Origin: Kiritimatiellia bacterium
GTDB lineage: Bacteria; Verrucomicrobiota; Kiritimatiellia; RFP12; UBA1067
Length of the DNA: 64,000 nucleotides
Assembly (NCBI GenBank): GCA_017450695.1
Contig: JAFSTA010000168.1
Span: 17,826-81,825 of the forward strand
Reading direction: 5' to 3'
Of this stretch, positions 1,756-49,586 are shown piece by piece. Positions within the stretch are counted from its first letter, which is position 1, and each line of letters opens with the position of its first letter. Under the pieces are notes generated by a model. That model had not been told where the DNA came from and made no database searches. It saw only the letters and a program-made list of their open reading frames with translations. Both the position numbers and the translations under genes were made by a program.

Positions 1756-4700
1756 TCACTTGAAGTAGTGGAGCTTGACGGGGGGATGCGCTTTCTTCTC
1801 CTTTTCCACTTCCTCTTGAAGAGTCCTGATTGCGGCATTCAACTGGACGTCCACCCCGGCCGCCCGTTGGTTTAGGTCATCCTCGATGAGGATATCGGGG
1901 ATGGCGCCGTGCTTTTCCATATCTTTCCCGTCCGGTAGGAACCATCCATGTGCAGGGATGCGGATCTTCCCGTAATCCAGAAGCGTGGAATCCACCGTGC
2001 CGATGACGCGCGCCCCGGTGGGTTCTCCGACGAGCTTCCCGCGCTTCATGGTTTTGATCGCATGCGAGAAGATTTCCCCGTTGCTGGCGGTCGTTTCGTT
2101 GCAAAGCACCACGATCGGCTTGTCCCAGACCGGATGCGCCATGTAGCCACGCAAGAGATATCCGGGCGTCGATCCGCGAAAGACGGCGTACGAGTGGGTC
2201 GTACAGCACAACACTTGCAGGATTCGGTCGGCGACAAAACCACCAGAGTTGTTCCGGACGTCGATAATCATTCCGTCACGCCCGTACCCTTCCGCGAAGA
2301 TATCCTCTTCGAACTGGTAGTAGTCCTTCATTTTCATCGCCGCGATGTCGAGATAGCCAAGCCGATTGTTGGAGATACGGTGAACCCGCTCCCGCAATTC
2401 GTCAGAATAGGCGCGCTTCATCAACTTGCGGATTTCGGGATATGTTGAGGTGCGGATTTTCACCTTCAGCGGTTCCGTGTCCTTGCGTTGAACGGTCAGT
2501 GTTACGATTGGTTGCGCGTATCCGTTCAGGACTTCGCTTTCATCTTGACCGGAGGTGACAGGGTGACCATCCACCTCCAGAATGATGTCACCCGGTTTCA
2601 GGTTCGCGGCGGATGGATCTGCCGGGCCACCGGGTACGACGTAACGGACACGCCACCCTTTTCCCTTGTGTTCGGTGTCGAAAAGAACGCCCAGATGTGC
2701 GGTCGTGACTGTCCACGACTGGAAGCATGGCGTCTTCTCCCACTCCTTCTCGTAAGTGGGCGTCGGGGAGAATCCGAGATGCGAGGAGTTCAATTCGCCG
2801 AGCATCATGAGCATGACACGGGTGAATACCGAGTAGGTCGGCGCATAACGGGCTGCAAGACGGTATTTCTCCTTGACAGCCTCCCAGTTTGCGCCGTGGA
2901 AATGATCGTCGTAAAACTGGTCCCGCAATTTTCCCCAGGCGGTCAGGAATGCCAGTTCCTGATAGTCGGAGAGGTCGGTCGTCTGGTAAACCTGGAAGGG
3001 GAATTTGGTTGTGAAGTGGGCGGGAAGCTCTCCGCTGATCCACAACGGCTTGTCACCTTTCTTCAGCCAGCCGACGATCTGACCGCTGGTGTCTGCCAGC
3101 TTTTCGGGTTTCAGTTTGTTCGGAATGCGGATCCGGTAAGTCACGCCGTTGTTCTGGTAGAGGAGCGCTCGGCTATCGGAGGCGAAATAAGGTAACTTTC
3201 CGGGGATTGGCAATCGGCGGACCCTTTTGTCCAGATCGGTGAAATCAATGACAAGGTCCTTCGGTTTCTCGGCGGCAGCCGCCTCTTGCTTTTTTCCTTT
3301 GGTGGAATCGTCCTCTTTCTTTTTCTGTTGCGCGACCTCAGCCTTGTCCTGGGGCGGCGCGTTGGTGGTGGCGACCTCAGCCTTGTCCTGGGGCGGCGCA
3401 TTGGTGGTGGCGGGTTTCGCATGAGGGGCAGAGGCGTTGTCGGCGACGAGCTTGCGCGCGTCGTCGAATTTCTTGGGAAGATCCTCTTTCGCTTCGTCTT
3501 CCGGATTCAGCCAGACGTAGAAAATGTTGTACAGTTCGGAATCGGGGCGGACACCCGCAAACGCAATCAGTTTTCCATCGGGAGACCAGCAGGGATTGAT
3601 ATCGCTCTTGTAGCATCGGGAGAGGTTGTACGGTTCGCGCGAACCGTTGATGGGAAAGATCCAGATGTCCTTGTTCCCATAGCAGTCGCCGATGGAGGCG
3701 ACGATCCACTTGCTGTCCGGCGACCACATGTAGTTCTCGGCGCGGGCGGCGGCGGGACCGGTCGCGGTTTCTTTCCCGTCCAGACCGCAGATGTGGATGC
3801 GCCCCAGCGAATCCTGCCAGGAAAGTTGTTTCCCGTCGGGGCTCAGCTTGAGGTTCTCCCTCCGCCAGCTGTCGGTGGTGAGGCGTTGTTTCTTGAAGGT
3901 GAAGTTCTCCCACCACTGGCGCTTTGCGTCCGTACGTTCAGCTTTCCAAATATCGACGGCATCGCCCCTGTCGGAGAGATAGAAAAGAGCCTTCCCGTCC
4001 TTGGAGAAGACGCACTCGCGTTCGTGCGTGCGCGTCTCCCCGTGGACCAGATGCGGAATCCGCACGACGGTATCCATCACGTAGAGGTCTCCACCTGTCG
4101 TGAAAGCCATTTGCATTCCATTCTCGGAAAAGGAGAGCGAACCGGTAGAGTCGTTGTTCCAGAGCGAGGTGTAAAACCGACGGCGCGTGGTGGGGCGGCG
4201 CGGGGCGGCGCGAGCTGTCAGGATGAGTTTGCGAGCTTCCTTTACCGGCGACCTCGGATCGATCCGGTAGAAGTCGAACCCCTTCCGGAAAATCATCGTC
4301 GTTCCGTCTCCGGAGAGCGTCGGCTGCATAACAGAATCGTCCTTGAAGAAAGTGATTTGGATCTCTTTTTTTTCGGTCAGGTCGTACTTCCAGACGTTCA
4401 GGCATCCGTCCGCCTCGGAGACGTAGTAGAAGCCTTTTCCATCGGGTGTCCAGATAGGGGATCTGGATTCAGTCTCACGTTTGAGCAGGCAGGTGAATCG
4501 CTTGGAGTCAATCGAATAGAGCCATAGCTGGCGGGCGAGCGAGGAATGCGTTCCCTTGCGGAAGATCGATTCTCCTTTCCGGGTGAACAGGAGTTGTTTC
4601 CCGTCCGGCGAAAGCGACGGGTCAAACCCGTGGTTGTCGAAATACACGTTAGGCGCGGCGCGCCGGTCTGCGGGGATTTCGGCAATCCGGCCCGCCAGCG

Positions 4701-5154
4701 GGTCAATGGGGGAGACGCCGATCTCCGTATGGATGAGCAGGTCGCGTCCTCCATGAATCCAGGCGTATGGATACGTGGACTCTGAATGGAAGGTCAATTG
4801 GCGGACGTGCTCGCCTTGGATATCCATCACGAAGATTTTGCGTCCCCCGTCACGGTCGCTGCAGAATGCGATCTTCTGCCCGTCGGGAGAGAGGACGGGG
4901 CAGGAGTTCTTCGATCGGTCCGTCTGCAACGGCGTCGCGGCCCCTCCTTCCGACGAGGCTTTCCAAATGGAATCCGCCCACTCGAAGACGAAGAATTTCC
5001 CGTCCTGCGAGAGCGAGGGGCGCGACCCCAGATAGATGCGGTCCTGCAAGGGGATTTCCCCGTTCGGTTTCTGAACCTGGTTCTCCGCACGGACGGAGAA
5101 GACGGCGACGGTTCCGAATACGAATGCGATGACAAAGAATGGTTGAATTTTCAT
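1756..5154 (-). CDS. Tricorn-protease-like S41 peptidase (TolB/WD40-like beta-propellers + PDZ + S41 C-terminal domain), secreted
   Basis: 1132-aa ORF with signal peptide MKIQPFFVIAFVFGTVAVFSVRA. It has repeated SPDGK/SPDGQ propeller motifs, a PDZ-like segment (LKPGDIILEVDGHPV) and an S41-type C-terminal region (VVLCNETTASNGEIFSHAIK). Length and order match tricorn protease homologues as I recall them. Confidence 0.85.
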   Translation of the reverse strand: MKIQPFFVIAFVFGTVAVFSVRAENQVQKPNGEIPLQDRIYLGSRPSLSQDGKFFVFEWADSIWKASSEGGAATPLQTDRSKNSCPVLSPDGQKIAFCSDRDGGRKIFVMDIQGEHVRQLTFHSESTYPYAWIHGGRDLLIHTEIGVSPIDPLAGRIAEIPADRRAAPNVYFDNHGFDPSLSPDGKQLLFTRKGESIFRKGTHSSLARQLWLYSIDSKRFTCLLKRETESRSPIWTPDGKGFYYVSEADGCLNVWKYDLTEKKEIQITFFKDDSVMQPTLSGDGTTMIFRKGFDFYRIDPRSPVKEARKLILTARAAPRRPTTRRRFYTSLWNNDSTGSLSFSENGMQMAFTTGGDLYVMDTVVRIPHLVHGETRTHERECVFSKDGKALFYLSDRGDAVDIWKAERTDAKRQWWENFTFKKQRLTTDSWRRENLKLSPDGKQLSWQDSLGRIHICGLDGKETATGPAAARAENYMWSPDSKWIVASIGDCYGNKDIWIFPINGSREPYNLSRCYKSDINPCWSPDGKLIAFAGVRPDSELYNIFYVWLNPEDEAKEDLPKKFDDARKLVADNASAPHAKPATTNAPPQDKAEVATTNAPPQDKAEVAQQKKKEDDSTKGKKQEAAAAEKPKDLVIDFTDLDKRVRRLPIPGKLPYFASDSRALLYQNNGVTYRIRIPNKLKPEKLADTSGQIVGWLKKGDKPLWISGELPAHFTTKFPFQVYQTTDLSDYQELAFLTAWGKLRDQFYDDHFHGANWEAVKEKYRLAARYAPTYSVFTRVMLMMLGELNSSHLGFSPTPTYEKEWEKTPCFQSWTVTTAHLGVLFDTEHKGKGWRVRYVVPGGPADPSAANLKPGDIILEVDGHPVTSGQDESEVLNGYAQPIVTLTVQRKDTEPLKVKIRTSTYPEIRKLMKRAYSDELRERVHRISNNRLGYLDIAAMKMKDYYQFEEDIFAEGYGRDGMIIDVRNNSGGFVADRILQVLCCTTHSYAVFRGSTPGYLLRGYMAHPVWDKPIVVLCNETTASNGEIFSHAIKTMKRGKLVGEPTGARVIGTVDSTLLDYGKIRIPAHGWFLPDGKDMEKHGAIPDILIEDDLNQRAAGVDVQLNAAIRTLQEEVEKEKKAHPPVKLHYFK
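3332..3409 (-). repeat. Direct 39-bp in-frame duplication inside the tricorn-like gene
   Basis: GCGACCTCAGCCTTGTCCTGGGGCGGCGC(G/A)TTGGTGGTG occurs at 3332-3370 and 3371-3409 with 1 mismatch. It encodes the duplicated peptide TTNAPPQDKAEVA within a low-complexity K/E/A-rich linker. Confidence 0.95.
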
Positions 5155-5205
5155 GTCCTGTATTCTACACGAAATCGCCCCTGTTTGCTATCCCGAAATT
5201 CGCGC

Positions 5206-5640
5206 CAGCTGCGTAGCGACCGTGCCCTCGCCGTCGGCTTTCGGGGAAACTGGGTCAGATAAGTGGCGGTTGCACCGCCTAAGTGGTCTTGCGACCTAAA
5301 TGGGGCTGGCGCCACTAAGTTGACTTAGCCGCGAAGCGGCAGGCGTATGTCGTATGTCCTTTCCCTCACGCAGCGCGGACAAGTCGTTCAATCGGGGAAG
5401 CGACACTTGTCGCTTTTACGTGGCAACAGAACAGAATGAAGCGGCAGGATGAACTAAGAATGTAGAACTCGAAACTGATAGGCGAGCGTTATTGTATATT
5501 TGGACAACAACTTCAACAACGGATAGACAACTCGCTGGCGGTCGTCGCGCAACCGCGCGACGGTTCTTATCCGGCTTGCGGTTGCGAGCCGTCCGAATTC
5601 AAGGTTGTTCTCGATGTTGTTCCAGTTGTTTTCCGCTCAG
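5206..5640. repeat. Mosaic intergenic repeat block (modules A, TAAGT-punctuated hairpin array, B, X)
   Basis: A: 5206-5246 CAGCTGCGTAGCGACCGTGCCCTCGCCGTCGGCTTTCGGGG. Hairpin array: 5256-5340. B hairpin: 5394-5416 GGGGAAGCGACACTTGTCGCTTTT. X module: 5501-5640, near-identical in layout to 26625-26757. Confidence 0.85.
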
Positions 5641-9561: not shown

Positions 9562-9765
9562 GGGGCGCTACGCGCCAGCTGAGAAGCTGAGAAGTTGACT
9601 GGTTGAAAGGCTGAGAAGAACAAACATGCGACAGGTGACGGGGCATGTCGCACGTTCGCCGTTTCCGCATTTGGTGGCACGGCATAGTTTCCGCGCGTTT
9701 CTCAGCCACCCGCCACCCGCTACCACCTACCCGCCACCCGCTACCAGCCGCTAGCTACCAGCCAA
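9562..9765. repeat. Mosaic intergenic repeat block (GCTGAGAAG words, B-like hairpin, CCACCCGCTACC words)
   Basis: 9562-9618 GGGGCGCTACGCGCCAGCTGAGAAGCTGAGAAGTTGACTGGTTGAAAGGCTGAGAAG. 9627-9652 is a GCGACA...TGTCGC hairpin. 9700-9765 holds CCACCCGCCACCCGCTACCACCTACCCGCCACCCGCTACCAGCC words (reverse complement at 26411-26475). The block runs into the last codons and stop (9751-9753) of the adjacent CDS. Confidence 0.8.
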
Positions 9766-11857: not shown

Positions 11858-12454
11858 ACGCTTCGCGGCTAAGTGCCCCTACGGGGCTAAGTGCGCTTCG
11901 CGGCTAAGTCACTTAGGCGGCGTTAGCCGCCACTTACTTCCTCCACCCATTCCTTGCCTATCAGTTCCGAGTTCTGCGCGGGACGAGACGGCGAGGGCAC
12001 CGTCGCTACGCAGCGGACGCGACGGAGCGCGTCCCAGAACTGGCGGCCATGCCGCCTTTCGTGTTCTTTCGTGTCCTGCGCCAGCGGGTTTTCGTGGTCG
12101 CGCGAAGCGCCACGCGTTGTCTCATGAGGAAATTGACACACCGTCGAAAAGCGACAGGAGTGTCGCTTCTCCGAAGAGAGGGGAAAATTCAATCGCTTCG
12201 CTTGAAATGGTTAAATGGTTAAATTGACGAGGCACAGAAATGCGGAGCGGATCAGACCGATTTAAAGCCGCGCCAGCGGCGATTTAACCATTTAACTATT
12301 TAACCATCCAAAGGTCGCGCGAAGCGCTAGATTCCGTGTGTTCCGTGTATTCCGTGGTTCAAATTGTCCAACAGAGAAAAGTTAAGTCACTTAGGCGGCG
12401 CCAGCCGCCACTTAGGGCGTCAGCCCACTTAGGCGGCATAGCCGCCACTTACAC
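11858..12454. repeat. Mosaic intergenic repeat block (two hairpin arrays, modules A, C, B, D, E)
   Basis: Hairpin arrays at 11858-11940 and 12381-12454. A (reverse) at 11987-12014, C (reverse) at 12013-12035, B (reverse) at 12146-12176. D long-inverted-repeat element at 12181-12312. E at 12331-12374 (ATTCCGTGTGTTCCGTGTATTCCGTGGTTCAAATTGTCCAACAG). Confidence 0.85.
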
Positions 12455-13282
12455 TTATGGTCTCCGCCCATTCCCCGCCTCATCGAACCCGAGGACGGCG
12501 ACGCCGTACTCGCGGGCGGTGGCGAGGATGCGTTCGAGCCATTCCGTTTTCATGTGGATGTGCTTCGCGTCGGGATGGATTCCGTGCGAGGTGAGGACGA
12601 AGACCTCATTCCGTTCGGCGCACCGCCTGAGGCACGCGCAGAGGTCTGCGATGTCGGTGTGGTAGGCCTCACCCGCAATGGCGGTGTCCAGACGGAAACG
12701 CGCGTGCAGTTCCGCCGCTGGAAAGAAGGCGCGGTCTGTCTCGTGTATGGGCCTCAAACCTGCCCGCCTCTCCCCCTTCGGGTCGTAAGGCGTGACGCCC
12801 GACAGTCCCCCGCGCACATGGGCGAAACCATGGGCGCGAAAGAGTTCGTCCGTCTCTTCCGTGCGGCGGCTGTTGGGATAGGCGAATGCCGTTACCGGGA
12901 TTCCCGCCGCACGGCACCCCGCCAGTTGGGGCGCGATCTCCGCCGACCAGTATCCGCTCACTCCGTTTGTGACCACGGCGGCATCCGCATTGAGGTGTTT
13001 CAATCCGTGCAACCCGATGGAATGTCCGTGTGCGCTCAGCTTCTTCAATGTCGTCGCCGCCTCTCCCTTGATCGGTCCGGTGACAAAGAACGTGACATGC
13101 GCCCCGTACTTCTCGAACAGGGGGATCGCCGTTTCCCAGTCGCGGAGATTCCTGTCATCGAAGGAGAGGATCAACGCCCCGTGCGTTCGCGCATTCGACC
13201 GTTCTGCCGACAGACAGACGCCCGGAATCGAAAGCGCAAGGAACGCCGTCAACAGCAGAAAGTTATGCGTGAGTCGGATCAT
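12455..13282 (-). CDS. Polysaccharide deacetylase (CE4 / NodB homology domain), secreted
   Basis: 275 aa with a signal peptide, then LILSFDDRNLRDWETAIPLFEKYGAHVTFFVTG and HGHSIGLHGLKH, which is the NodB-type motif pattern. Confidence 0.8.
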   Translation of the reverse strand: MIRLTHNFLLLTAFLALSIPGVCLSAERSNARTHGALILSFDDRNLRDWETAIPLFEKYGAHVTFFVTGPIKGEAATTLKKLSAHGHSIGLHGLKHLNADAAVVTNGVSGYWSAEIAPQLAGCRAAGIPVTAFAYPNSRRTEETDELFRAHGFAHVRGGLSGVTPYDPKGERRAGLRPIHETDRAFFPAAELHARFRLDTAIAGEAYHTDIADLCACLRRCAERNEVFVLTSHGIHPDAKHIHMKTEWLERILATAREYGVAVLGFDEAGNGRRP

Positions 13283-15476: not shown

Positions 15477-16004
15477 TCATCGGGGTTGCCTTGGGGGGAC
15501 GATTCCTTGCGGGTTTGTGTTTCGTTCGTTCAGGTGTTCTTCCTTGATGCCCTGCCGGGGACGGAGCATGGGATCGTATCCGGCCTTCTTTTCGGCCGCC
15601 TGAAATTCCTTGTCGGCGAGATCCGCCGTTCCCTTCACATACGGTTTCCGTTCGGGGGCGATGTCGGGGGGCGCTTGGAAGGTGCAGACCTTGGTCGTCT
15701 TGCGCTGGACATACGACTCGCCTCCCGCCGCGGATTTCGATTCGAACGGGGCGGCGTCCGCCGTGCCGCCTTTCGCGGCGGATTTCCACTCCTGCTCGCG
15801 TCCGGGCGTGTAGGATGTCCCGGTGAAGCTGCGCGAAGAGGCGGAATAGGATTTTCCCTCGAACCGTTTCCCCTCCCGGTCGTCACGCGCCCGGTAGACT
15901 TTGGGAACGAATCGCGTCTCGTCGTGGCTGACCTCGGACTGGGTGGTGCAGGAGAGGGATGAGAAGAGGAGCAGGGCGAGCAACGGTTTGGCGAGTCGCT
16001 TCAT
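15477..16004 (-). CDS. Hypothetical secreted protein or lipoprotein
   Basis: 175 aa with N-terminus MKRLAKPLLALLLFSSLSCTTQS (signal peptide with Cys; imperfect lipobox). The body is low-complexity and charged. ATGA start/stop overlap with the upstream TetR gene. Confidence 0.55.
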   Translation of the reverse strand: MKRLAKPLLALLLFSSLSCTTQSEVSHDETRFVPKVYRARDDREGKRFEGKSYSASSRSFTGTSYTPGREQEWKSAAKGGTADAAPFESKSAAGGESYVQRKTTKVCTFQAPPDIAPERKPYVKGTADLADKEFQAAEKKAGYDPMLRPRQGIKEEHLNERNTNPQGIVPPRQPR

Positions 16005-16603
16005 GGGGTATCCTCCCGCTTGAGCCCTCGGATCGCCAGGCGGATTACCGAAAGCGACTTTTCCAGATCGGCGTTCTGCGAGACGGTCAGGCGCAGGAAT
16101 GCCGATTCGAGCAGGCTGTAGAGTTGTTCGACCGTGAGCGAGACGTGGAGGGGACGGAACTCGCCCTTGCGCATCCCTTCGAGCAGGAGGCGCTGGAGAA
16201 TCCGTTTCAGCCCGATCGTGTGTTTCTCGATCTCCCGCGCCACAGACCGCTTCCCGCGTCCCAGCGTCAGCAGGAAATCGACGATCACGATCAGCAGCGC
16301 CTTTTCGGTGAAGAGCAGCTTGAGCACGGCGGTAAGCAGGCTTTCCAACCGTTCCGCGACCGACGTGCGGACGTGCAACACGTCCTCATACTTGCGGATG
16401 AGTTCGCTCGTCACCTCCCAGATCGCATGGTTGAAGATCGAGAGCTTGTTGTGGAAATACTGGTACAGCGTGGTGCGAGCGATTCCGCAACTGTCGGCAA
16501 TCTTCTGATAGGTGACACCATTGTATCCCTGTTCGGCGAAAAGCCGGATGGACTTTTCGATAATTTCGCGTTTTCTCGCTTCGTGGTCGATTACAATTCC
16601 CAT
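16001..16603 (-). CDS. TetR/AcrR family transcriptional regulator
   Basis: 200 aa. N-terminal HTH region IIEKSIRLFAEQGYNGVTYQKIADSCGIARTTLYQYF matches the TetR_N pattern. Confidence 0.85.
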   Translation of the reverse strand: MGIVIDHEARKREIIEKSIRLFAEQGYNGVTYQKIADSCGIARTTLYQYFHNKLSIFNHAIWEVTSELIRKYEDVLHVRTSVAERLESLLTAVLKLLFTEKALLIVIVDFLLTLGRGKRSVAREIEKHTIGLKRILQRLLLEGMRKGEFRPLHVSLTVEQLYSLLESAFLRLTVSQNADLEKSLSVIRLAIRGLKREDTP

Positions 16604-16668: not shown

Positions 16669-16693
16669 GTGCTAGGTTTTGGGGCAAGGAGAC

Positions 16694-16823
16694 GGGGGCT
16701 TCGCCCCCGAACCCCTGGCGCTTCGCGCCTAAGTCTCTTAGCCCCGCAGGGGCACTTAGAGCCGAAGGCTCACTTAAGCGCGAAACGCCACTTACTTGCC
16801 CCACTGAGGCGGCGTCAGCCGCC
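16694..16823. repeat. Array of six GC-rich mini-hairpins punctuated by TAAGT/ACTTA words
   Basis: The six hairpins are GGGGGC-TTC-GCCCCC, GGCGC-TTC-GCGCC, GCCCC-GCA-GGGGC, GAGCC-GAA-GGCTC, GCG-CGAAA-CGC and GGCGGC-GTCA-GCCGCC. They are separated by TAAGTCTCTTA / ACTTA / ACTTAA / CACTTACTT. The last hairpin (16808-16823) contains the rdgB stop codon in its loop. Confidence 0.85.
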
Positions 16824-17423
16824 GCTTTTGCTAGGCTCCAGCAGGGGAAGCCAGTTTTGCTGGGCGGATTGGAGGGCGCGGGCGCGGTGGGAGATGCGGT
16901 TTTTGATTTCGGGACCGAGTTCCGCGAAAGTCTGGTCGTAGCCGTCGGGTACGAAGAGCGGGTCGTATCCGAAGCCGGTCGCGCCGCGTGGCTCTTCGAT
17001 GATTCGGCCTGGGCAGGAGCCTTGCACCGTCCATTCCCGTCCGTCGGGGGCGCAGAGGGCGATCGCGCAGCGGAAACGCGCGGCGCGGTCCGTCACGCCC
17101 TCCAGGTTGCGCAGCAGCTTCGCGTTGTTCGCCGGGGTGTTGGTGGGTTCGCCCGCGTAGCGCGCGGAATGGACACCCGGTTCGTTGTTCAACGCGCGGA
17201 CTTCGAGGCCGGAGTCGTCCGCGAGCGTCCAGAGTCCGGAGGCGGCGCAGAGCGTCCGCGCCTTTTCCAGGGCGTTCCCCTCGAAGGTGTCGGCGTCTTC
17301 TTCGACATCCTCCGGCAATCCCGGCACCTCATCGGCGGAGACGAGCGTCACCTCCGCCGACTGGAAGATCTCCTTGATTTCCCGTACCTTGTTGGCGTTT
17401 CGTGTGGCTAACAACAGTTTCAT
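16815..17423 (-). CDS. rdgB: Non-canonical purine NTP pyrophosphatase (RdgB/HAM1 family)
   Basis: MKLLLATRNANKVREI..., DDSGLEVRALNNEPGVHSARY, FGYDPLF and KNRISHRARAL are hallmark RdgB motifs. Confidence 0.9.
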   Translation of the reverse strand: MKLLLATRNANKVREIKEIFQSAEVTLVSADEVPGLPEDVEEDADTFEGNALEKARTLCAASGLWTLADDSGLEVRALNNEPGVHSARYAGEPTNTPANNAKLLRNLEGVTDRAARFRCAIALCAPDGREWTVQGSCPGRIIEEPRGATGFGYDPLFVPDGYDQTFAELGPEIKNRISHRARALQSAQQNWLPLLEPSKSGG

Positions 17424-20460: not shown

Positions 20461-22988
20461 TTGCTGTTGATACGCTGAACTTTGTTTTGGGGATCATCGA
20501 CACGGAGTTCGGAGTTCCGCGCGATCGTGGAGGAGATCGTCACTTTGGCGTCACCTTTCACGGTGACGTGATGCGGGAGGTTCTGCGCCGTGATTCCGGC
20601 TATCAACTGGAAGGTGCCGCCGTTGCCGTCGATACGGATTTCGGGAGAGCAGGTGTTGAACTGATCGAGCAGGACCAGCCCCTTGCCGGAGAGCCGCGCC
20701 GTGTCGCCGGGCGGCGCCCAGATCTGCGTGGCGTAGAAACGGCTCTCGCCCGCGTTTTCGGGGAGGGAGACGATGGACGCCTCCTTGGTCTTGCCGAGGC
20801 AGGTGAGCTGCGTGAGCGCGAAGTCCAGATTCGATCCGCGCTCGGTCTGGAGCGTCAGCGCGCGGCTGCCGGTGTCCGATCCGTGCATCAGGACGCTTGC
20901 GCTCGTCTTTCCGTAGAAGGCGATTCCGTCGTAGGCGGCGAAGAGGAAGTTGCCGCGCATCTGTTCGTTTTCGCAGTCCCTCACGACGATTCCCTCCAAG
21001 TGCGCACGCTGGTAATCGAAGAGCTTGTTGAGATTGTGGATGAATCCCATGCCGCGCGGGGTGCGCTGCATATAGTGCGGATTGAACTGCACGTCTTCCA
21101 CCCATCCGTGCCCTTTGCAGTTGCCGACGAAAAGCCCGCGACGAAACATCGCGCCTGAAAGGTAGGAGATGAAATGTCCGTCGCTGGGATGCGTCGCGAA
21201 ATCGACCCCCTGCCAGGCGTTTCCGATGTTCACGTCCTTGATCCAACAGCGCGGTCCGAGGGAACGCACCGTCCACGGATACGGAACCGGATCTTCCCGC
21301 TGGCGCGGGTACCAGAAGCCAAGTCCTCGCAGCCCCGATTCCGGTTGCAGTTGGACGAACGGAGTACCCGAGTCCTCGCCTTCGCCCGTCTCGATCATCA
21401 GGACGGAGCCGCCGGAGATCGTGTGGTGCGGCACGTCGAACGAACCGCGTAGCTCCACGCCGCTCGGCACAACAATACCCGCACGGAACGTGTAGTACCC
21501 GGCGGGGATGTACACCGTACCTCCGGTCTTCGCGGCGGCGTCCAAAGCTCGTTGGAAGGCGGCGGCATTGTCCTGGTTGGTGACGGAGGCGCCAAAGTCC
21601 GTCACGAACAGGACCGTTTTCGACAGCGGGCAACGGATGAGGTTTCCCCCCGAGAAGCTGGGAAGTTGAGAAGCTGAGAAATGGGAAAATATGGATAGCA
21701 GACCATCATGCTTTTGCTGAATAGAGGTGAAGAGTTTGTTGGGAGGTGGCACGGTTCCGTGTTCTTTCCTGATTGACACGTTTTCCGGTTTCGCTCGGTT
21801 GTCTAGTTTGACTTTCTGTAAGTCCGCTCCTGTCAACACGGCGCGTTGCAGCTGTTCACCCAGATGGAGTTCTGCGGTACGGTTTTCTTCCATCACCAAC
21901 ACGCCCGCATCCGCCTGGGCGGAGTCAATCTCGGAGTTGCGGAAGGAGACGAAGTTGTTCGGCGCGGTGAGTTTCGCGCTCCCCGTCAGATTGCAGGTGT
22001 GGAACTGCACAACGGTATCGCGTGCAGGTGGGGCGAGGGCGAATGCCGCCTCGTTTCCTTTCAATGTACATTGGTAGAGCGCCAGCCCGACGGCGTTCAG
22101 TTTTTCGACCGCTAGCGCCGTACCGCATCCTGTTATCTGGCAATCTCCCATGACGGCGTTGCTCAGACCTCGTCCGCCCTGACGGAAGCGGATGCCCGTG
22201 CGATAGCCATTCACACTCAAACGATAGATGTATTCCCAGTCGCTCCTTCCAAAGTCCACACCGATAGACGGGGACTGGCGCAACCACTCTCGGCATGCTT
22301 TCTCATCCTGGGAATAGAAGCACCAAGGATCCGGTGAGACATGCACATTCTCGATGCGACCGATGTCCGTCACGTTATCGATGGCAAGTCCGCAACGGAG
22401 CGCGAAGATATCGACATCGCGCAACAGGTGCAGCTCGCTCCACTCCGGCCCGATCGAGATGCCTTTCCAGCAGTTGAAGAGTGTACACCGTTCAATCGTC
22501 TGGTTGTCTCCGCCATTCTCCGTGCTGGTCTTAATCGTCCAAGGGTAGGGGATCGGATCGGGGAAACGCTGCTCGGGATACTGGAATGTCAGGTCGATCA
22601 GACCGGTACCGCGCTGGATTCGGACGGCGGGCGTTCCGTCCTCCTCGCCTTTTCCGCAGGTGATATCCAACTGTGTGTACGGATTCCGATCCAAACAAAA
22701 ACCTTCTCCGCGCAGGGTCACGCCTTCCCGCAGATGGAGCGGGGTTCGGATTGGATAATGGCCTGCCTTCAGAAAGACCGTCCCTCCACCTTCTTTCGAA
22801 ACGCGATCGATCGCGGACTGGATACGCGGCGCGGCGTCTTCGCCGTCATCCTTCGCTTCGAGCGTGGCGCAGGCGATGATCAAATCGCAGAGCCTTTCCC
22901 CGTCTGTCACTGGGACGGGGGTGCTTTGCACGAAGGCGGCAAGAAGGGATGCACCGAACAACAGGGTTGAGGTGGGAAGAAGTCGCAT
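20457..22988 (-). CDS. Secreted double beta-helix glycoside hydrolase (two Pectate_lyase_3-type domains, GH55-like architecture)
   Basis: 843 aa with a signal peptide. Two copies of the N-cap motif are present: AAPRIQSAIDRVSKEGGGTVFLKAGHYPI and NAAAFQRALDAAAKTGGTVYIPAGYYTF. The tandem beta-helix layout is that of GH55 exo-beta-1,3-glucanases. Confidence 0.7.
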   Translation of the reverse strand: MRLLPTSTLLFGASLLAAFVQSTPVPVTDGERLCDLIIACATLEAKDDGEDAAPRIQSAIDRVSKEGGGTVFLKAGHYPIRTPLHLREGVTLRGEGFCLDRNPYTQLDITCGKGEEDGTPAVRIQRGTGLIDLTFQYPEQRFPDPIPYPWTIKTSTENGGDNQTIERCTLFNCWKGISIGPEWSELHLLRDVDIFALRCGLAIDNVTDIGRIENVHVSPDPWCFYSQDEKACREWLRQSPSIGVDFGRSDWEYIYRLSVNGYRTGIRFRQGGRGLSNAVMGDCQITGCGTALAVEKLNAVGLALYQCTLKGNEAAFALAPPARDTVVQFHTCNLTGSAKLTAPNNFVSFRNSEIDSAQADAGVLVMEENRTAELHLGEQLQRAVLTGADLQKVKLDNRAKPENVSIRKEHGTVPPPNKLFTSIQQKHDGLLSIFSHFSASQLPSFSGGNLIRCPLSKTVLFVTDFGASVTNQDNAAAFQRALDAAAKTGGTVYIPAGYYTFRAGIVVPSGVELRGSFDVPHHTISGGSVLMIETGEGEDSGTPFVQLQPESGLRGLGFWYPRQREDPVPYPWTVRSLGPRCWIKDVNIGNAWQGVDFATHPSDGHFISYLSGAMFRRGLFVGNCKGHGWVEDVQFNPHYMQRTPRGMGFIHNLNKLFDYQRAHLEGIVVRDCENEQMRGNFLFAAYDGIAFYGKTSASVLMHGSDTGSRALTLQTERGSNLDFALTQLTCLGKTKEASIVSLPENAGESRFYATQIWAPPGDTARLSGKGLVLLDQFNTCSPEIRIDGNGGTFQLIAGITAQNLPHHVTVKGDAKVTISSTIARNSELRVDDPQNKVQRINSK

Positions 22989-26410: not shown

Positions 26411-26757
26411 CTGTTAGGTGGTGGCAGTTAGGTGATAGCTGGTAGCGGGTAGGGGTTGGGTGGTTAGGTGGTTGACAGCTGCGTAGCGACGGCGCCCCCG
26501 CCGTCGGCTTTCGGGGAAGCGATACTTGCTTTGCGAGGCAACAGAATGAAGCGGCAGGAGTGCCGCTTCCCCGAACGTCTCGCGCAGAACTCGGAACTGG
26601 TAGGCAAAAGGTTCACTTTGCAAAAGGACAACAACTTGGACAACGGATAGACAATATGCTGGCGGTCGTCTCGCAACCTCGCGACGTTTCGCATTCGGTT
26701 CGCGGTTGCGAGCCGAACCATTCTGAAGTTGTTCCCAAGTTGTTTGTGTTGTTTCCC
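26411..26757. repeat. Mosaic intergenic repeat block (GGTAGCGGGTGG words, modules A, degenerate B, X)
   Basis: 26411-26475 GTTAGGTGGTGGCAGTTAGGTGATAGCTGGTAGCGGGTAGGGGTTGGGTGGTTAGGTGG is the reverse complement of the 9700-9765 word set. A at 26476-26516. X module at 26625-26757, matching 5501-5640. Confidence 0.85.
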
Positions 26758-28438: not shown

Positions 28439-28449
28439 CGCCGCCAGCC

Positions 28450-28764
28450 GGGTAAGCTGGGTAAGCGTGTTAAGCTGGTTAAGCGCGTTAGGCTGGGTAA
28501 GCGTGTTAGGCTGGCTGGCGCGATCCATCCTACGCAAGGAGGACAGGCCAGTGTGCTCCTCCCGATTCGGGCAACGAGGACGTTGCCCCTCCCATTCTCC
28601 GCGTGAGGCAAAACAATTACTCGCGTGAAGCGAGAGTGTCGCTTCCCCGAAAGCCGACGGCGAGGGCGCCGTCGCTACGCAGCTGGCGCGAAACGCCGCC
28701 TTTCGTGGTCGTGCGAAGTGCCCTATGCCGTGTATTCCGTGGTATGCAAATTGTCCAACAAATG
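28450..28764. repeat. Mosaic intergenic repeat block (about 11-bp periodic GGGTAAGC/GTTAAGC words, modules B, A, E)
   Basis: 28450-28518 GGGTAAGCTGGGTAAGCGTGTTAAGCTGGTTAAGCGCGTTAGGCTGGGTAAGCGTGTTAGGCTGGCTGG. B (reverse) at 28627-28649, A (reverse) at 28645-28685, E at 28727-28762. Confidence 0.85.
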
Positions 28765-36178: not shown

Positions 36179-36425
36179 CAGATAAGTGGCGGCTCCGCCG
36201 CCTAAGTGGGGCTGACGCCCCTAAGTTAGTAGCGAAGCGGTCGCTGGGGTTCGTCTCGGCCTAACCTGTCAACGTATAGGCAAGCCTAGAGGGGAAAATG
36301 AAATCGCGTCGCTTGAAATGGTTAAATGGTTAAATTGACGAGACACAGAAATGCGGAGCGGATCAGGCAGATTTAAAGCCTCCGAAGGAGGCGATTTAAC
36401 CATTGAACCATTGAACCATCCAAAG
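36179..36425. repeat. Mosaic intergenic repeat block (hairpin array + D long-inverted-repeat element)
   Basis: 36179-36245 reads CAGATAAGT-[GGCGG CTC CGCC]-TAAGT-[GGGGC TGAC GCCCC]-TAAGT... The D element at 36291-36425 is about 85% identical by eye to 12181-12312. Confidence 0.85.
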
Positions 36426-38372: not shown

Positions 38373-38580
38373 GGCGGCTGACGCCGCCAGCTGAGAAGCC
38401 GTGGCGGCTGACGCCGCCAGCTGAGAAGCTGAAAAGCTGAGAAGCAGATAAGTGGCCATGCGGGCCTAAATGGGGCTGGCCCCCCTAAGAGGCGCTACGC
38501 GCCAGTTCTGAGTTCTAAGGTCAGAGCTTTGTGCGGGACGCGCCCCGTCGCGACCGCAATACTTAACCCGCTTACCCGGC
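38373..38580. repeat. Mosaic intergenic repeat block (30-bp-period duplicated hairpin+GCTGAGAAG unit, hairpin array, module C, GCTTACCC words)
   Basis: GGCGGCTGACGCCGCCAGCTGAGAAGC occurs at 38373-38399 and again at 38403-38429. CAGATAAGT-hairpin-TAAAT-hairpin-CTAAGA-hairpin lies at 38444-38495. Module C at 38533-38563. ACTTAACCCGCTTACCCGG at 38561-38579. Confidence 0.85.
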
Positions 38581-38650: not shown

Positions 38651-39364
38651 ATGTTTGGAAAGAAAACTGAGAAACAGGAAAAATCCGCCCTTGAATCGGA
38701 GGAGCGTGTAAAAGAGCAGGAAGAGCCGATCGCCGGGGAATCGGATTCCGTCGCCGAATCGGAAACCGATTCGGCCGCGCAGGAACAGCAGGAAGTTTCG
38801 GAGACGGTTGATGTCGCCGAATTGCAGCAGGCGCTTGCGGCGGAACAGGCTGCGCGCGAGCTGGCGGAAAAGAAGAGCTTGGAATTGAAGGAGCAGCTGG
38901 TGCGGACGATGGCGGATTTTGAGAATTTCCGCAAGCGCCAGATTCGCGACCGCGAAATGATGGAGCGTCATGCGAACGAGCGCGCGATGGAAGATTTCCT
39001 GCCGATCGTGGATCATTTGGAAATGGCTCTTTCCAAGACGGACGAAGAGGCGAAGAAAGATCCCTTCGTGCAGGGAATCCAGTTGATTTATACGCAGTTC
39101 ATCGATGCCTTCGCGAAGCATGGGATGACGCCGATTGACGCGAAGGGGGAGAAGTTCGATCCGCAGATTCACGAGGCGCTGACGCAGTTGCCCTCCGCCG
39201 ATGTGCCGGAGGGAGTGGTGATCGACCAGTTCCGGCGAGGCTGGAAAATCGGTGACTACCTTGTCCGTGCCGCCCAGGTGACCGTTTCTTCCGGTGCGCC
39301 CGCGCCTGAAACGCCGTCGCCTGAAGAGCCTTCGTCCGAGGCGGAGGGGACGGACGCCCAGTAA
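38651..39364 (+). CDS. grpE: Nucleotide exchange factor GrpE
   Basis: Acidic N-terminus, then LVRTMADFENFRKRQIRDRE and ...HEALTQLPS...V.DQFRRGWKIGDYLVRAAQV, all typical of GrpE. ATG 38651 is preferred over the TTG at 38600; AAGGAG lies at 38637-38642. Confidence 0.9.
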   Translation: MFGKKTEKQEKSALESEERVKEQEEPIAGESDSVAESETDSAAQEQQEVSETVDVAELQQALAAEQAARELAEKKSLELKEQLVRTMADFENFRKRQIRDREMMERHANERAMEDFLPIVDHLEMALSKTDEEAKKDPFVQGIQLIYTQFIDAFAKHGMTPIDAKGEKFDPQIHEALTQLPSADVPEGVVIDQFRRGWKIGDYLVRAAQVTVSSGAPAPETPSPEEPSSEAEGTDAQ

Positions 39365-41350: not shown

Positions 41351-41625
41351 TCCTCTGTTGGACACTTTGAAAAACCACGGAACACACGGAATACACGGAA
41401 AATCTGTCGGCGAGGGCGCTTCGCGCAACCACGAAAGGATGGTTAAATAGTTAAATGGTTAAATGTTTAAATGGTTAAATCGCCACTGGCGCGGCTTTAA
41501 ATTGGCCATTCACTCTTCGGGGAAGTGACACTCTTGTCGCTTTTCGTCGGTTCATCCATTTCACTATTTAAGCATTTCAAAGCGAAGCGATTTAACTTTC
41601 CCTCGATTCCTCTGTTGGACACTTT
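41351..41625. repeat. Mosaic intergenic repeat block (E reverse, D reverse with inserted B hairpin, E fragment)
   Basis: 41351-41400 TCCTCTGTTGGACACTTTGAAAAACCACGGAACACACGGAATACACGGAA is the reverse complement of E. The D element (reverse) at 41438-41602 has the B hairpin GGGGAAGTGACACTCTTGTCGCTTTT (41519-41544) inserted in its centre. A second TCCTCTGTTGGACACTTTGA lies at 41609-41628. Confidence 0.85.
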
Positions 41626-46584: not shown

Positions 46585-47652
46585 GTGAGTCGATCGGGGA
46601 ACAGCAACCTTCACGATTCGTCGCGAAACAAGCAGGACGAGTTCTACACCAACCTCCAGCTCATCGAGGACGAGCTGAAGCACTACCGCGCGCACTTCAA
46701 GGGCAAGCGCGTCCTGTGCAACTGCGACGATCCCTACGAAAGCAACTTTTTCAAATATTTCGCGATGAGTTTCAATTCGCTCGGGCTGAAAAGCCTCACC
46801 GCGACGTGCTACGCGACAAGTCCCGTCGTGTACACACAGCTCGACCTGTTCGGGGAGGAGATGATCGTTGGCCGCAAAGGAACGCAAAGGGGGAAACAGC
46901 CCTACAAGATCGTCATAAACGAGGTCACGGACGTGAACGGGGACGGGCGCGTCGACCTTGCCGACGTGGAATGGCTCATCAAGAACAGGAAGAACGTGCT
47001 GACAAAGCTGAAGGGCGACGGCGACTTCCGCTCCGCCGAGTGCGTCGCGCTCCTCGACGAGGCGGACATCGTCGTCACCAACCCGCCGTTCTCGCTTTTC
47101 CGCGAATACATGGCGCTCCTGATGGAGCATGGCAAGCAGTTTCTCATCCTCGGCAACATGAACGCCGTCACCTACCGCGAGATATTCCCGCTCATTCGCG
47201 ACAACAAGGTGTGGCTCGGCAACAAGGCGGGGCATTTCTGGTTCAGGGTGCCGGACAGCTACGAGGAAAAGGCGACGGACTTCAAGATTGACGAGAACGG
47301 GCAGAAGTGGCGGCGCATGGGCAACATCTGCTGGTTCACCAACCTCGACATAGAAAAACGCCACGAGGAGATGACGCTCTTCCGCCATTATTCGCCGGAG
47401 GAATATCCCACATACGACAACTACGACGCGATAGACGTAAAGAAGACAAATGATATTCCTTGTGACTATCTAGGTGTAATGGGTGTGCCTATTACATTCA
47501 TGCAGTATTATTGCCCAGAACAATTTGACTTGCTTGGCGAATTTAATCATGGGCAAGATAACGAATTCGATTTGGCGGTTCCAAGTGTCAATGGGAAAGT
47601 AATGTTTAAGCGTATTGCAATTCGCCGCAAGCGGAAGGGGCAGGTAAAATGA
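46585..47652 (+). CDS. N6-adenine DNA methyltransferase, EcoRI-methylase family (PF13651-like)
   Basis: GTG start 46585 with AAGGAG at 46572-46577. NKQDEFYTNLQLIEDELKHYRAHFKGKRVLCNCDDPYESNFFKYF, catalytic VVTNPPFSLFREY (NPPF) and C-terminal GVMGVPITFMQYYCPEQFDLLG match the family pattern from memory. Confidence 0.8.
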   Translation: MSRSGNSNLHDSSRNKQDEFYTNLQLIEDELKHYRAHFKGKRVLCNCDDPYESNFFKYFAMSFNSLGLKSLTATCYATSPVVYTQLDLFGEEMIVGRKGTQRGKQPYKIVINEVTDVNGDGRVDLADVEWLIKNRKNVLTKLKGDGDFRSAECVALLDEADIVVTNPPFSLFREYMALLMEHGKQFLILGNMNAVTYREIFPLIRDNKVWLGNKAGHFWFRVPDSYEEKATDFKIDENGQKWRRMGNICWFTNLDIEKRHEEMTLFRHYSPEEYPTYDNYDAIDVKKTNDIPCDYLGVMGVPITFMQYYCPEQFDLLGEFNHGQDNEFDLAVPSVNGKVMFKRIAIRRKRKGQVK

Positions 47653-47955
47653 ATAACAACCGGATTTGTTCGCCGCTAACGCGGCTCACTGATGCGAGAA
47701 TGGCGAAGGCCGTTAGGCCTGAGCAAATCCGCTTGTTAAACACAAGCGAAACAATGAACAACAACCGGATTTGTTCGCCGCTAACGCGGCTCACTGATGC
47801 GAGAATGGCGAAGGCCGTTAGGCCTGAGCAAATCCGCTTGTTAAACACAAGCGAAACAATGAACAACAAACGGATTTGTTCGCCGCTAACGCGGCTCACT
47901 ATGCGAGAATGGCGAACGCCGTTAGGCGCGAGCAAATCCGTTTGTTGAACACAAA
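47649..47955 (+). repeat. Three tandem copies of a 105-bp hairpin-forming unit (between the methyltransferase stop and the GxxExxY gene)
   Basis: Units start at 47649, 47754 and 47859. Copies 1 and 2 differ at one position; copy 3 is diverged with a 1-nt deletion. Each unit has arms AACAACCGGATTTGTTCG / GAGCAAATCCGCTTGTT enclosing CTAAC...GTTAGGC. Copy 1 begins inside the methyltransferase stop codon. Confidence 0.9.
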
Positions 47956-47973
47956 CAAAGGAATGGAGGTTGT

Positions 47974-48423
47974 ATGATCCTCTACGAGGAAGAGACAAAT
48001 CGTATCATCGGCGCATGCATGGCTGTACACAACGAGTTGGGCAATGGATTCCTTGAAGCCGTTTATCAAGATGCTTTGGAGATTGAGTTTCGCGAACGAG
48101 CTATCCCCTACAGGCGCGAAGCGCATATACGAATATTTTATAAAGGGCATTTGCTCGACAAAGAGTATTACGCTGACTTCATTTGCTTTGACAAGATAAT
48201 CGTGGAATTGAAATGCGTGTCGCGTCTTGTGAATGCAAACAAAGCGCAAGTAATCAATTATCTGCACGGAACTGGACTCAAGGTCGGATTGCTTGTGAAC
48301 TTCGCTGAGGCATCGCTAAAGTGGGAGCGTCTCACAAATTTACGGAACATAAAGTCCCAAGAAGCAGCAACAAACGGATTTGCCCAGACCCAACCGTCTT
48401 TGCAATTTAGTGAGCGCCGTTAG
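47974..48423 (+). CDS. GxxExxY protein (PD-(D/E)XK-like, PDDEXK_3 / TIGR04256-type)
   Basis: 149 aa with RBS GGAGG at 47965-47969. The eponymous motif lies in HNELGNGFLEAVYQDAL (G-FL-E-AV-Y). Later YADFICFDKIIVELK matches the nuclease-fold core. Low GC (about 42-45% by eye). Confidence 0.8.
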   Translation: MILYEEETNRIIGACMAVHNELGNGFLEAVYQDALEIEFRERAIPYRREAHIRIFYKGHLLDKEYYADFICFDKIIVELKCVSRLVNANKAQVINYLHGTGLKVGLLVNFAEASLKWERLTNLRNIKSQEAATNGFAQTQPSLQFSERR

Positions 48424-48448
48424 GCGCGAACAAATCCGTTTGTTAAAA
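48369..48448 (+). repeat. Fourth, variant copy of the hairpin unit, spanning the GxxExxY stop codon
   Basis: The perfect 14-bp inverted repeat AACAAACGGATTTG (48369-48382) / CAAATCCGTTTGTT (48431-48444) has the same arms as copy 3 at 47859-47955. The inner GCGCCGTTAGGCGCG contains the TAG stop (48421-48423). The RBS of the next gene follows immediately. Confidence 0.85.
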
Positions 48449-48463
48449 CCAAGGAGCATCGAA

Positions 48464-49582
48464 ATGAACAGCAAGATGAAGATAAAGGAACACAAGATTC
48501 CCGTGCGGGAGGTGTTCGACGGGTATGTGGATTCGGCGGAGCTGGGCGTTCGCGGCTACGGCGGCAAGTTGAACATCCGTCCGGCGTTCCAGCGCGAGTT
48601 CGTTTACAAGCCCGCGCAGCGCGACGCGGTGATCGAGACCGTGCGGCAGGGGTTCCCGCTGAACGTCATGTACTGGGTGCGCAACGAGGAGGGCGGCTTC
48701 GAGATGCTCGACGGGCAGCAGCGGACTCTCTCCATCTGCCAGTACGTGAACAACGAGTTCAGCATCGACCACCACAAGTTCGAGAACCTGACGAAAGAGG
48801 AGCAGGAGGACATCCTCGATTACGAACTCACAATCTACATCTGCGAGGGCGAGGAGCGCGAGAAGCTGAAGTGGTTCGAGGTGGTGAACACCGCGGGCGA
48901 ACAGCTCAACGCGCAGGAACGCCGCAATGCGCAGTACACCGGCAGGTGGCTCCACGAGGCGAAGAAGCATTTCAGCAAGACGGGATGTGCGGCGGCGGCG
49001 ATCGGCGACAAGCTGCTGAACGGATCGGCCATACGTCAGGATTTCCTTGAAACGGCGCTTGCGTGGATTGCCGACCGCGACGGCGGTGACATCCTCGACT
49101 ACATGTCCGCGCATCAGCATGACGAAGACTGCTCCGACCTGTGGGGGTATTTCGAGAGCGTAATCAAGTGGGTCAAGGCAACGTTTCCCGTTCTGCGCGG
49201 TAAGTTGATGAAGGGGTTGCCGTGGGGCATATACTTCAACAGGTATGGGAATGAGAAACGCGACGCGGCGGCGTTGGAGAAGCGGATAACGCAACTTCTT
49301 CGCGACGATGAGGACGTGAACGACATAACGAACCAGCGCGGCATCTACGAGTATCTTCTCTCCGGCGACGAACGGCACTTGAGCATACGGCGCTTCTCCG
49401 ACAAGATGGCGCGGACGGCCTACGAACGGCAAGAGGGCAAATGCCAGAAGTGCGGCAAGGAGTTCGCCATCGAGGAAATGCAGGCCGACCACATCACGCC
49501 GTGGGCGAAGGGCGGCAAGACCGTCGCCGAGAACTGCCAGATGCTCTGCGCGGACTGTAATCGCCGCAAAGGAGGGGTGTAG
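48464..49582 (+). CDS. DUF262 (ParB/Srx-like, DGQQR motif) protein with C-terminal HNH endonuclease domain
   Basis: Start ATG 48464 (RBS AAGGAG at 48451-48456). The DUF262 signature is in FEMLDGQQRTLSICQY. C-terminal HNH: CQKCGKEF...ADHITPWAKGGKTVAENCQMLCADCNRRKG. Confidence 0.8.
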   Translation: MNSKMKIKEHKIPVREVFDGYVDSAELGVRGYGGKLNIRPAFQREFVYKPAQRDAVIETVRQGFPLNVMYWVRNEEGGFEMLDGQQRTLSICQYVNNEFSIDHHKFENLTKEEQEDILDYELTIYICEGEEREKLKWFEVVNTAGEQLNAQERRNAQYTGRWLHEAKKHFSKTGCAAAAIGDKLLNGSAIRQDFLETALAWIADRDGGDILDYMSAHQHDEDCSDLWGYFESVIKWVKATFPVLRGKLMKGLPWGIYFNRYGNEKRDAAALEKRITQLLRDDEDVNDITNQRGIYEYLLSGDERHLSIRRFSDKMARTAYERQEGKCQKCGKEFAIEEMQADHITPWAKGGKTVAENCQMLCADCNRRKGGV

Positions 49583-49586
49583 GAGC

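Follow-up and report, generated by a model that had tools for sequence, protein, structure and literature searches.

The 64,000-nucleotide stretch analyzed here (the window), from contig JAFSTA010000168.1 of a Kiritimatiellia bacterium, is a fragment of a Kiritimatiellae chromosome with many glycoside hydrolases, and the closest homologues of its Ham1 protein carry the name Kiritimatiellae at NCBI. Between the genes for Ham1/RdgB and a TetR protein lies an array of GC-rich mini-hairpins punctuated by the pentamer TAAGT or by ACTTA, which is the same word on the opposite strand, and five further arrays of this kind occur in the window, all six being located between co-directional genes according to the gene calls of the source contig (Table 1). 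We propose that these arrays are probably a non-autonomous selfish repeat of a gut/rumen Kiritimatiellae clade, resembling the repetitive extragenic palindromes (REPs), bacterial interspersed mosaic elements (BIMEs) and Rickettsia palindromic elements (RPEs) of other bacteria. The family is previously undescribed and has a new tag, shorter hairpins, free stem letters, a strict convergent polarity and a frame-neutral period.

The units in the window, as delimited by a mechanical hairpin search, are GC hairpins of 12-16 nt with 4-7-bp stems and 3-5-nt loops, with TAAGT or ACTTA between them. They are arranged in a defined order, in which a head made up of (C)AGA(T)-TAAGT and a hairpin of the GGCGGC type is followed by directly repeated units, each with TAAGT and a GC hairpin of 12-16 nt, then by a center of 1-2 nt and an inverse run of like units in the other orientation. 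Every window array makes one such polarity switch, from TAAGT units through a short center (e.g., TAAGT-C-ACTTA) to ACTTA units, a property that the initial annotation of this DNA missed. The window arrays have the CAGA-TAAGT-GGCGGC hairpin head in common, followed by a GGGGC-TGAC-GCCCC unit, and the units at 5295, 36201 and 38465 are copies of one unit. The initial annotation described the array sequence correctly throughout, including the opening CAGATAAGTGGC shared by the arrays at 5256, 36179 and 38445. It counted seven arrays of a single grammar, of which six do share the TAAGT grammar but the one at 38373-38444 follows another, and it held both stem halves to be always complementary, which is mostly so although some units, such as GCGCTTCGCGGC and GGCGTTTCGCGCT, are imperfect. 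The stem variety that it reported is genuine in that stems covary with pairing kept, but part of it is due to a small set of unit types that have been copied from one array to another.

The arrays are genuine and not a product of chance. The window has 14 CTAAGT words, all of them within arrays, compared to a chance expectation of 7.7 such words anywhere, and 22 of the 32 TAAGT/ACTTA words are clustered there. There are 11 segments of 9-20 nt bracketed by same-sense tags, versus 0.085 per dinucleotide shuffle (maximum 1), and nine of them form flush hairpins with stems of 4 bp or more, versus 0.2 when the bases are shuffled inside each segment. Folding of 16690-16830 yields z values of -3.8 (RNA) and -5.5 (DNA). 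Because independent assemblies from other samples carry identical arrays at 99.9-100% identity, an assembly artefact can be dismissed; these same-strain contigs show no polymorphism in unit number, the sole difference being in the 105-nt tandem repeat listed in Table 1. The whole window gave zero matches to Rfam 15 at the gathering score, and a tRNA scan of it found nothing.

Table 1. Tagged hairpin arrays and other repeats and features of the 64-kb window.
Feature	Position	Sequence organization	Genomic setting and remarks
Focal array	16693-16823	Minus-strand reading: head GGCGGC-TGAC-GCCGCC (16823-16808); first arm of TAAGT-tagged GGCGTTTCGCGCT (imperfect), GAGCCTTCGGCTC, GCCCCTGCGGGGC; center TAAGAG/ACTTA; then opposite-sense GGCGC-GAA-GCGCC and CGGGGGC-GAA-GCCCCCG	Between Ham1/RdgB (16815-17423, minus) and TetR (16001-16603, minus); head loop contains the Ham1 TGA stop (16817-16815)
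Array	5256-5340	CAGA-TAAGT and GGCGG hairpin head; three or four plus-sense units (one tag TAAAT); center TAAGT-TG-ACTTA; single opposite-sense unit GCCGC-GAA-GCGGC	~100 nt upstream of the start of a tricorn-like protease ORF (1756-5154, minus)
Array	11858-11940	Three plus-sense tags; center TAAGT-C-ACTTA; GGCGGC-GTTA-GCCGCC; ACTTA	End 53 nt upstream of DUF6259 gene start (11805)
Array	12381-12457	Minus-strand reading: three hairpin units, center, one opposite tag	Directly 3' of polysaccharide-deacetylase gene (12455-13282, minus)
Array	36179-36245	CAGA-TAAGT head GGCGGC-TCC-GCCGCC; GGGGC-TGAC-GCCCC; second arm degenerate	8 nt past DUF481 gene stop (36171)
Array	38445-38503	CAGA-TAAGT GGCC-ATGCG-GGCC; TAAAT GGGG-CTGG-CCCC; TAAG-A GGCGC-TAC-GCGCC; tags partly degenerate	Between fucosidase gene (stop 38372) and grpE (38651-39364, plus)
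Module beside array 38445-38503	38373-38444	Two copies GGCGGC-TGAC-GCCGCC, then AGCTGAGAAG 8-mer runs	Related but different repeat; module recurs at 9562-9598, 21644-21685 and 55396-55437
Second hairpin-plus-word module	9562-9598, 21644-21685, 38373-38448, 55396-55437	GGCGGC-TGAC-GCCGCC or GGCGC-TAC-GCGCC, then GCTGAGAA 8-mer runs	
~140-nt dispersed repeat	12177-12313, 36288-36425, 41437-41590 (inverted), 60646-60754 (inverted)	Tandem 8-mers (GGTTAAAT ... ATTTAACC), convergent around a core; hairpin GCCGCGCCAGCGGC at 12267, GCCTCCGAAGGAGGC at 36378	No Rfam match
8-9-nt tandem word runs	28446-28514; 55330-55399; 60790-60850; 1536-1567, 12330-12355, 41373-41404	AGCNGGKTA with TAAGC, CCGGAATRT, CACGGAAY	Intergenic
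~50-nt dispersed element	5199-5248, 11987-12022 (inverted), 26476-26526, 28635-28692 (inverted)	CAGCTGCGTAGCGACGG...GCCGTCGGCTTTCGGGGAA with 8-bp GC hairpin	Four copies 92-96% alike; two adjoin TAAGT arrays
105-nt tandem repeat	47648-47961	Three copies	One copy fewer in L040 (99.9% identical contig, other sample)
Defense-like cluster	46585-50711		EcoRI-type methylase, PDDEXK_3 protein, GmrSD_N/HNH endonuclease, Fic protein

A species-level scan for two consecutive tagged units in one genome per species, covering 185,579 species with ~1 chance match expected, gave 33 loci, and true hairpin arrays were found only in seven rumen/gut Kiritimatiellae-type metagenome-assembled genomes (MAGs), namely RGIG2765, RGIG2398, RGIG6996, RGIG2632, UBA3624, RUG572 and RUG10674. 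The matches in other phyla are plain tandem repeats of 8-25 nt that merely contain the word; the Bacteroidota MAG Proteiniphilum sp. RFS6, for example, has long GGTTAAGT/GCCTAAGT 8-mer runs at six or more loci (including L003, L004, L008, L021, L025 and L029) in which the TAAGT word is present and there are no hairpins. A metagenome scan with a stricter pattern added 27 loci, many of which end at contig edges, as expected since assemblies tend to break at multicopy repeats. Viral contigs searched with two patterns contained no arrays.

In the relatives the unit consists of TAAGT plus G-NNN-C-TNC-G-N'N'N'-C, a total of 18 nt or six codons. The tag-bracketed units number 269, of which 220 are 13-mers that conform to G-N-N-S-C-T-N-C-G-S'-N'-N'-C (an example with its tags is TAAGT-GGGGCTTCGCCCC-TAAGT). 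A perfect 5-bp stem is present in 196 of the 13-mers, stems come in 17 types that include all eight G/C combinations, and the loop of the 13-mers is TTC in 152 and TGC in 45. Covariation across copies, proposed as a check when the arrays were first annotated, is clearly present in the 52 distinct 13-mers, where 94.2% of stem cells are paired versus 65.3% in shuffles and the covariation score is 0.655 versus 0.181, with 0 of 500 shuffles reaching the observed value. In slid registers only 26-60% of the cells are paired. Constraint therefore acts on the pairing, the closing C-G pair, the loop and the tag but leaves the stem letters free, and TAAGT is indeed an invariant punctuation word, shared by several species. 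The non-Watson-Crick pairs are not enriched in G-U on the sense strand.

The constant blocks CTAAGTG and C-TNC-G alternate at a spacing of 9 nt, and this regularity, together with the dyad symmetry of the units and their intergenic location in the window, could indicate that a nucleoid-associated or regulatory protein reads C-TAAGT-G in double-stranded DNA every 18 bp, with the palindromes as dimer sites (as with BIMEs, IHF and gyrase). We consider such binding arrays very improbable, as a reader of double-stranded DNA needs no arm complementarity with free stem letters, the in-frame intragenic copies and the rapid changes in presence and absence described below speak against a positional role, and no candidate protein was found.

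The polarity of the arrays is also constant, with no divergent case among ~56 arrays; ~55 are either convergent or have a single arm (in many cases because the contig ends there), and one is mixed. In 25 of 42 arrays the center spacer measures 2 nt. The arms do not mirror each other and differ in their unit types, with the first arm typically closing on GGGCC-GGGGC-GTCGC beside the center and the second beginning at the head TAAGT-CGCCGCC-TTC-GGCGGC-TT and finishing on GCTGC or GCGCC and then GGCCC.

Arrays of the window lineage are intergenic with unit periods of 17-21 nt, which are not multiples of three, and in the UBA3624, RGIG and RUG lineages they are found within long open reading frames (ORFs), where they have up to 17 tags and read as Leu-Ser-x4. 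In-frame copies are present in at least seven host proteins. In L016 (L numbers denote the individual sequences compared), an ORF of 1,499 codons spans two arrays, which separate an N-terminal region, an HZS_alpha domain and an FGE-sulfatase domain from one another, and three paralogous genes for glycyl-radical enzymes carry an array at the same place. Other hosts include a sigma-70 region 4/Flg_new_2 protein, an FHA protein and a DUF5107/TPR protein. In L009 (1851-5165), the frame of a GH5 endoglucanase runs stop-free into that of a glycyl-radical enzyme, with a frame change near 4337-5165; either a pseudogene of MAG UBA3624 or an error of assembly could account for this. Two more hosts are a complete xylulokinase in L031 (PDB 5vm1, E = 2.7e-75), where the array amounts to ~34 extra residues between positions 311 and 322 of the 5vm1 chain, and a carboxynorspermidine decarboxylase in L019 (PDB 9eaf, E = 3e-116), where it amounts to ~45 extra residues between positions 293 and 295 of the 9eaf chain. 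That these through-ORFs are a mechanical coincidence was rejected for both enzymes, since the two flanks align collinearly to the solved structures, and the intragenic copies are thus predicted to be in-frame parts of conserved enzymes. The decarboxylase gene (L019 6684-7955, minus strand) has a second insertion relative to 9eaf, of ~26 residues at 125-160, that is without TAAGT units.

In most of the long two-armed arrays just one frame per strand is free of stops. The first arm reads CTA-AGT (Leu-Ser-x4) in this frame and the second CTT-AGG (Leu-Arg/Ser-x4), and therefore only insertions in that frame can survive within a gene. The TAA frame ends the protein, and tags serve in this way as stops for a gene in L042 and for the polysaccharide-deacetylase gene of the window, the TAA of which is that of the outermost ATAAGT word of the adjacent array. 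Peptides such as LSGASPLSGPSALS are predicted within xylulokinase or NspC. An array-encoded peptide gave no scored match when searched alone against a protein database, and in an AlphaFold model of xylulokinase P0001 (built from 26 sequences; mean pLDDT 62) residues 262-404 are all below 50, which makes it uninformative for the inserted loop. Selection might in principle act on these peptides, with arrays being kept as flexible linkers of a Leu-Ser-Gly-Ala-Ser-Pro type or as disordered loops, as has been proposed for Borg repeats. The 18-nt period, an open frame that is always the same and the persistence of arrays at one loop in many xylulokinase orthologues would fit such a role, but the window arrays are non-coding with periods that do not preserve frame, peptide selection leaves the perfect arm complementarity unexplained, and empty sites in close relatives mean that the loop is dispensable. 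We therefore give protein-level selection hardly any credence.

How quickly the arrays turn over is evident from xylulokinase, the orthologues of which (n = 120, 70-100% identical) are from 485 to 639 residues long. In an alignment of 26 of them almost all of the length variation is at one loop, with 0 to ~90 array-encoded residues (e.g., VKSAASPPVSGASPLSGPSAPSPLSREAALSPAGALSRKAAL...). At the DNA level the site is empty in L043 (from the same sample as the window), has a collapsed remnant in L044, and is filled with five tags in L031, with seven in L067 and with a two-unit block of 36 nt repeated four times in L042. Likewise, a 51-nt block is duplicated in L005 relative to L016 and L001, and orthologous arrays exchange unit types. 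As judged from these comparisons of sequences, arrays are shown to grow and shrink by duplication or deletion of blocks of one to three units at the constant tags. The same xylulokinase alignment (A1) contains small lineage-specific insertions rich in Gly, Ser and Ala in three other loops (columns 270-282, 313-325 and 398-405; proteins P0110/P0114, P0038/P0042/P0050 and P0083), and the main loop of P0005/P0013 has a different repeat, EIAASRLE....

Close relatives of the window organism also differ in whether orthologous intergenic sites hold an array. At the Ham1 site, RGIG6996, with the same gene order and an 89% identical Ham1, has only two degenerate tags, a second relative (Ham1 also 89% identical) has a GGCGGC hairpin and GGTTAAGCG 9-mers, and a relative with a 76% identical Ham1 has nothing there; conversely, an array follows the DUF6259 gene in RGIG6996 but not in the window. 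Because arrays come and go site by site among relatives, they are not conserved positional signals. At the same time, the order GGGCC-GGGGC-GTCGC / center / GGCCC-GCTGC/GCGCC ... head CGCCGCC-TTC-GGCGGC-TT recurs in three unrelated host genes, encoding the HZS_alpha/FGE-sulfatase protein (two sites), a glycyl-radical enzyme and carboxynorspermidine decarboxylase, and does so across different assemblies. Hence, the arrays are copies of a dispersed composite element and not independent local inventions, and the shared unit order shows that whole two-armed elements have been dispersed to unrelated loci.

This dispersal is also a difficulty for the view that the arrays are local minisatellites, i.e., repeats of a TAAG word shaped by replication slippage and hairpin-templated strand switching with no transposition and no enzyme. 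Tandem duplications of the 36-nt and 51-nt blocks and the variation in unit number are what one would expect of minisatellites, and hairpin-free 8-9-mer runs with the same word (GGTTAAGY, GGTAAGCG) adjoin arrays and are also found in other phyla. In the relatives, hairpin-free TAAGC/TAAGT word runs adjoin arrays in L009, L072 and L073. In addition, the first two copies of the ~140-nt repeat of the window have flanks that are 94% identical but entirely different hairpins between direct ATTTAA words. Local origin, however, cannot explain why arrays at non-homologous genes, and in different species, share their head and the succession of their different units; the tag and apical loop are conserved across assemblies, and slippage alone leaves the strict convergent polarity unexplained. 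A purely local origin is therefore quite unlikely in our view. Some of these observations hint at another possibility, that the mobile or 'written' unit is the single tagged mini-hairpin, an 18-nt module inserted at TAAGT-like words with duplication of the word by a hairpin-specific enzyme. A short word is directly repeated on either side of each hairpin (TAAGT in the arrays, ATTTAA in the ~140-nt repeat), runs of the same words without hairpins adjoin arrays, and hairpins are exchanged wholesale within repeats that have 94% identical flanks. We regard this as a long shot, yet if true the arrays would be built one hairpin at a time and would represent a natural system for in-frame loop expansion in the enzymes of the sister lineages. 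More generally, the intergenic DNA of the window is a mosaic of further short repeats, and GC hairpins are ~3 times denser outside than inside its genes.

The position of arrays near gene ends raises the question of transcription termination. They are not intrinsic (Rho-independent) terminators, as the units precede TAAGT and not T runs and arrays also lie within ORFs; a T run occurs only after 16808-16823, and there on the non-transcribed strand. They might nevertheless be U-tract-independent (bidirectional) terminators or exonuclease-blocking stabilizers of 3' ends, with TAAGU as a single-stranded linker. The co-directional setting of all six window arrays and their very stable predicted folds are in line with this idea, as is the convergent design, in which a transcript encounters sense units first whichever side it comes from. 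The window shows no enrichment of hairpin-plus-T terminators (11 versus 16.6 expected; 15 versus 19.6), which leaves room for another signal. The arrays had been described as directly following stop codons, and four of the six do abut the stop of the upstream gene, but those at 5256-5340 and 11858-11940 are promoter-proximal. Moreover, arrays of 5-17 tags are situated in long ORFs of conserved enzymes, which an efficient terminator would silence, the array at the Ham1 site is not conserved in relatives with an 89% identical Ham1, a sense-strand G-U excess is lacking, and the turnover in copy number is typical of selfish repeats. Termination or 3'-end stabilization as the primary role, which the initial annotation listed among several possible ones, is thus not borne out, given the in-frame arrays in enzymes, the absence of a U-tract and the poor conservation of the focal array. 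We judge it, and a dedicated terminator role in particular, to be unlikely, although a secondary effect on RNA ends is possible where arrays fall in 3' untranslated regions. Several other candidates were set aside on their anatomy. The arrays are not CRISPR arrays, which have constant repeats of 24-48 bp with unique spacers, as here only 5 nt are constant, a hairpin is what varies and there are no cas genes in the window, and neither integron attC sites, uptake sequences nor three-frame stop 'insulators' fit.

We therefore return to the arrays as a REP-like selfish repeat, which is probably correct. In this scheme a hairpin in single-stranded nucleic acid plus its tag would be what the propagating or maintaining machinery recognizes, and this recognition would be why pairing, apical loop and TAAGT are kept while stem letters vary. 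By analogy with the REP-associated tyrosine transposases (RAYTs), which are HUH enzymes acting on GTAG-tagged REPs, we infer that an enzyme specific for hairpin plus tag may propagate or homogenize the arrays. Copies would survive only where they are harmless, that is, between genes, at gene 3' ends, where the first tag can provide the stop codon with its TAA, or, within surface loops, in the only frame free of stops, where the 18-nt units of the sister lineages, being six codons, would keep the frame. Any effects on mRNA 3' ends would be by-products.

Several observations weigh against this interpretation. The window encodes no transposase, and tblastn and phmmer searches of ~550 kb, which included no whole genome, with an IS200 TnpA probe and E. 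coli RayT returned only noise, a weak negative in view of that coverage. The best match (L030 2926-3138) is an out-of-frame Arg-rich translation, and another, in L019, lies in the carboxynorspermidine decarboxylase gene. The REP-type option is nevertheless the closest among the roles that were originally listed. The tag is neither GTAG nor CGTC, and the hairpins are shorter than those of any described REP. At the xylulokinase and HZS/FGE sites neither a target-site duplication nor an exact boundary between empty and filled states can be defined. [quoted passage not shown] ACTTA-ATCT termini at some copies and no parent element. Finally, orthologues as little as ~70% identical still carry arrays in the same intragenic loop, which could reflect vertical inheritance and maintenance by selection or concerted evolution, not repeated transposition.

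The arrays have practical as well as conceptual implications. They represent an unusually clean natural hairpin grammar, in which tag, closing pair and loop are constant and stem letters are free, and they provide a defined motif of single-stranded DNA or RNA that could serve as bait for the enzyme responsible. In rumen Kiritimatiellae, many conserved enzymes have hypervariable loop insertions encoded by the repeat, and this affects gene calling, assembly (by contig breaks) and protein-family alignments of MAGs.

In comparison with known systems, RPEs are also selfish palindromic repeats that occur in frame in conserved genes and are tolerated in loops. They are, however, single elements of roughly 100-150 bp with conserved sequence rather than arrays of tagged mini-hairpins, and they belong to another phylum. 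Yeast mitochondrial GC clusters are short, GC-rich palindromic mobile modules in an AT-richer context, occasionally in frame in a coding gene, but they are organellar, do not form tandem tagged arrays and have other sequences. REPINs, REP doublets that form hairpins, resemble the arrays as dispersed units of two inverted arms that are presumably mobilized in trans, and differ in that their arms pair into one long hairpin while array units each fold alone (PMC3116915); in accord with this, the arms of the arrays are of different unit types and only one complementary unit pair is found across the center of the focal array. The tandem repeats of Borgs are likewise fast-evolving and in frame and add disordered protein segments, but they are perfect direct repeats with no hairpin grammar, tag or inverted arms (PMC9879509).

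The closest parallel is with the GTAG- and CGTC-tagged REPs. As described by Di Nocera et al. (2013; PMC3733652), these are mostly located between co-directional or convergent ORFs near 3' ends, supply stop codons to flanking ORFs, form clusters in direct and inverted orientation and differ in abundance between relatives, and their in-frame intragenic clusters, which encode 20-82 residues, are most numerous in Opitutus terrae, a member of the Planctomycetes-Verrucomicrobia-Chlamydiae (PVC) bacteria. The arrays have the same properties and are therefore read as a repeat of the REP/BIME/RPE kind: they are short GC hairpins with a constant tag, are multicopy (six in 64 kb) and dispersed near 3' ends, have direct and inverted clusters, use the tag as a stop, include in-frame copies and vary in copy number between relatives. 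They differ in having the pentamer TAAGT on both sides of every hairpin and not GTAG or CGTC at one end, and hairpins of 12-16 nt (13 nt in 220 of 269 units) and not palindromes of 20-40 bp. They differ further in that stem letters vary freely within one array, in the great length of the arrays (up to 17 tags), in an invariably convergent layout with defined head and center, and in their frame-preserving 18-nt period. If our interpretation is correct, they would represent a third, structurally distinct family of 'tagged palindromes' beside the GTAG and CGTC REPs, in a poorly studied phylum.

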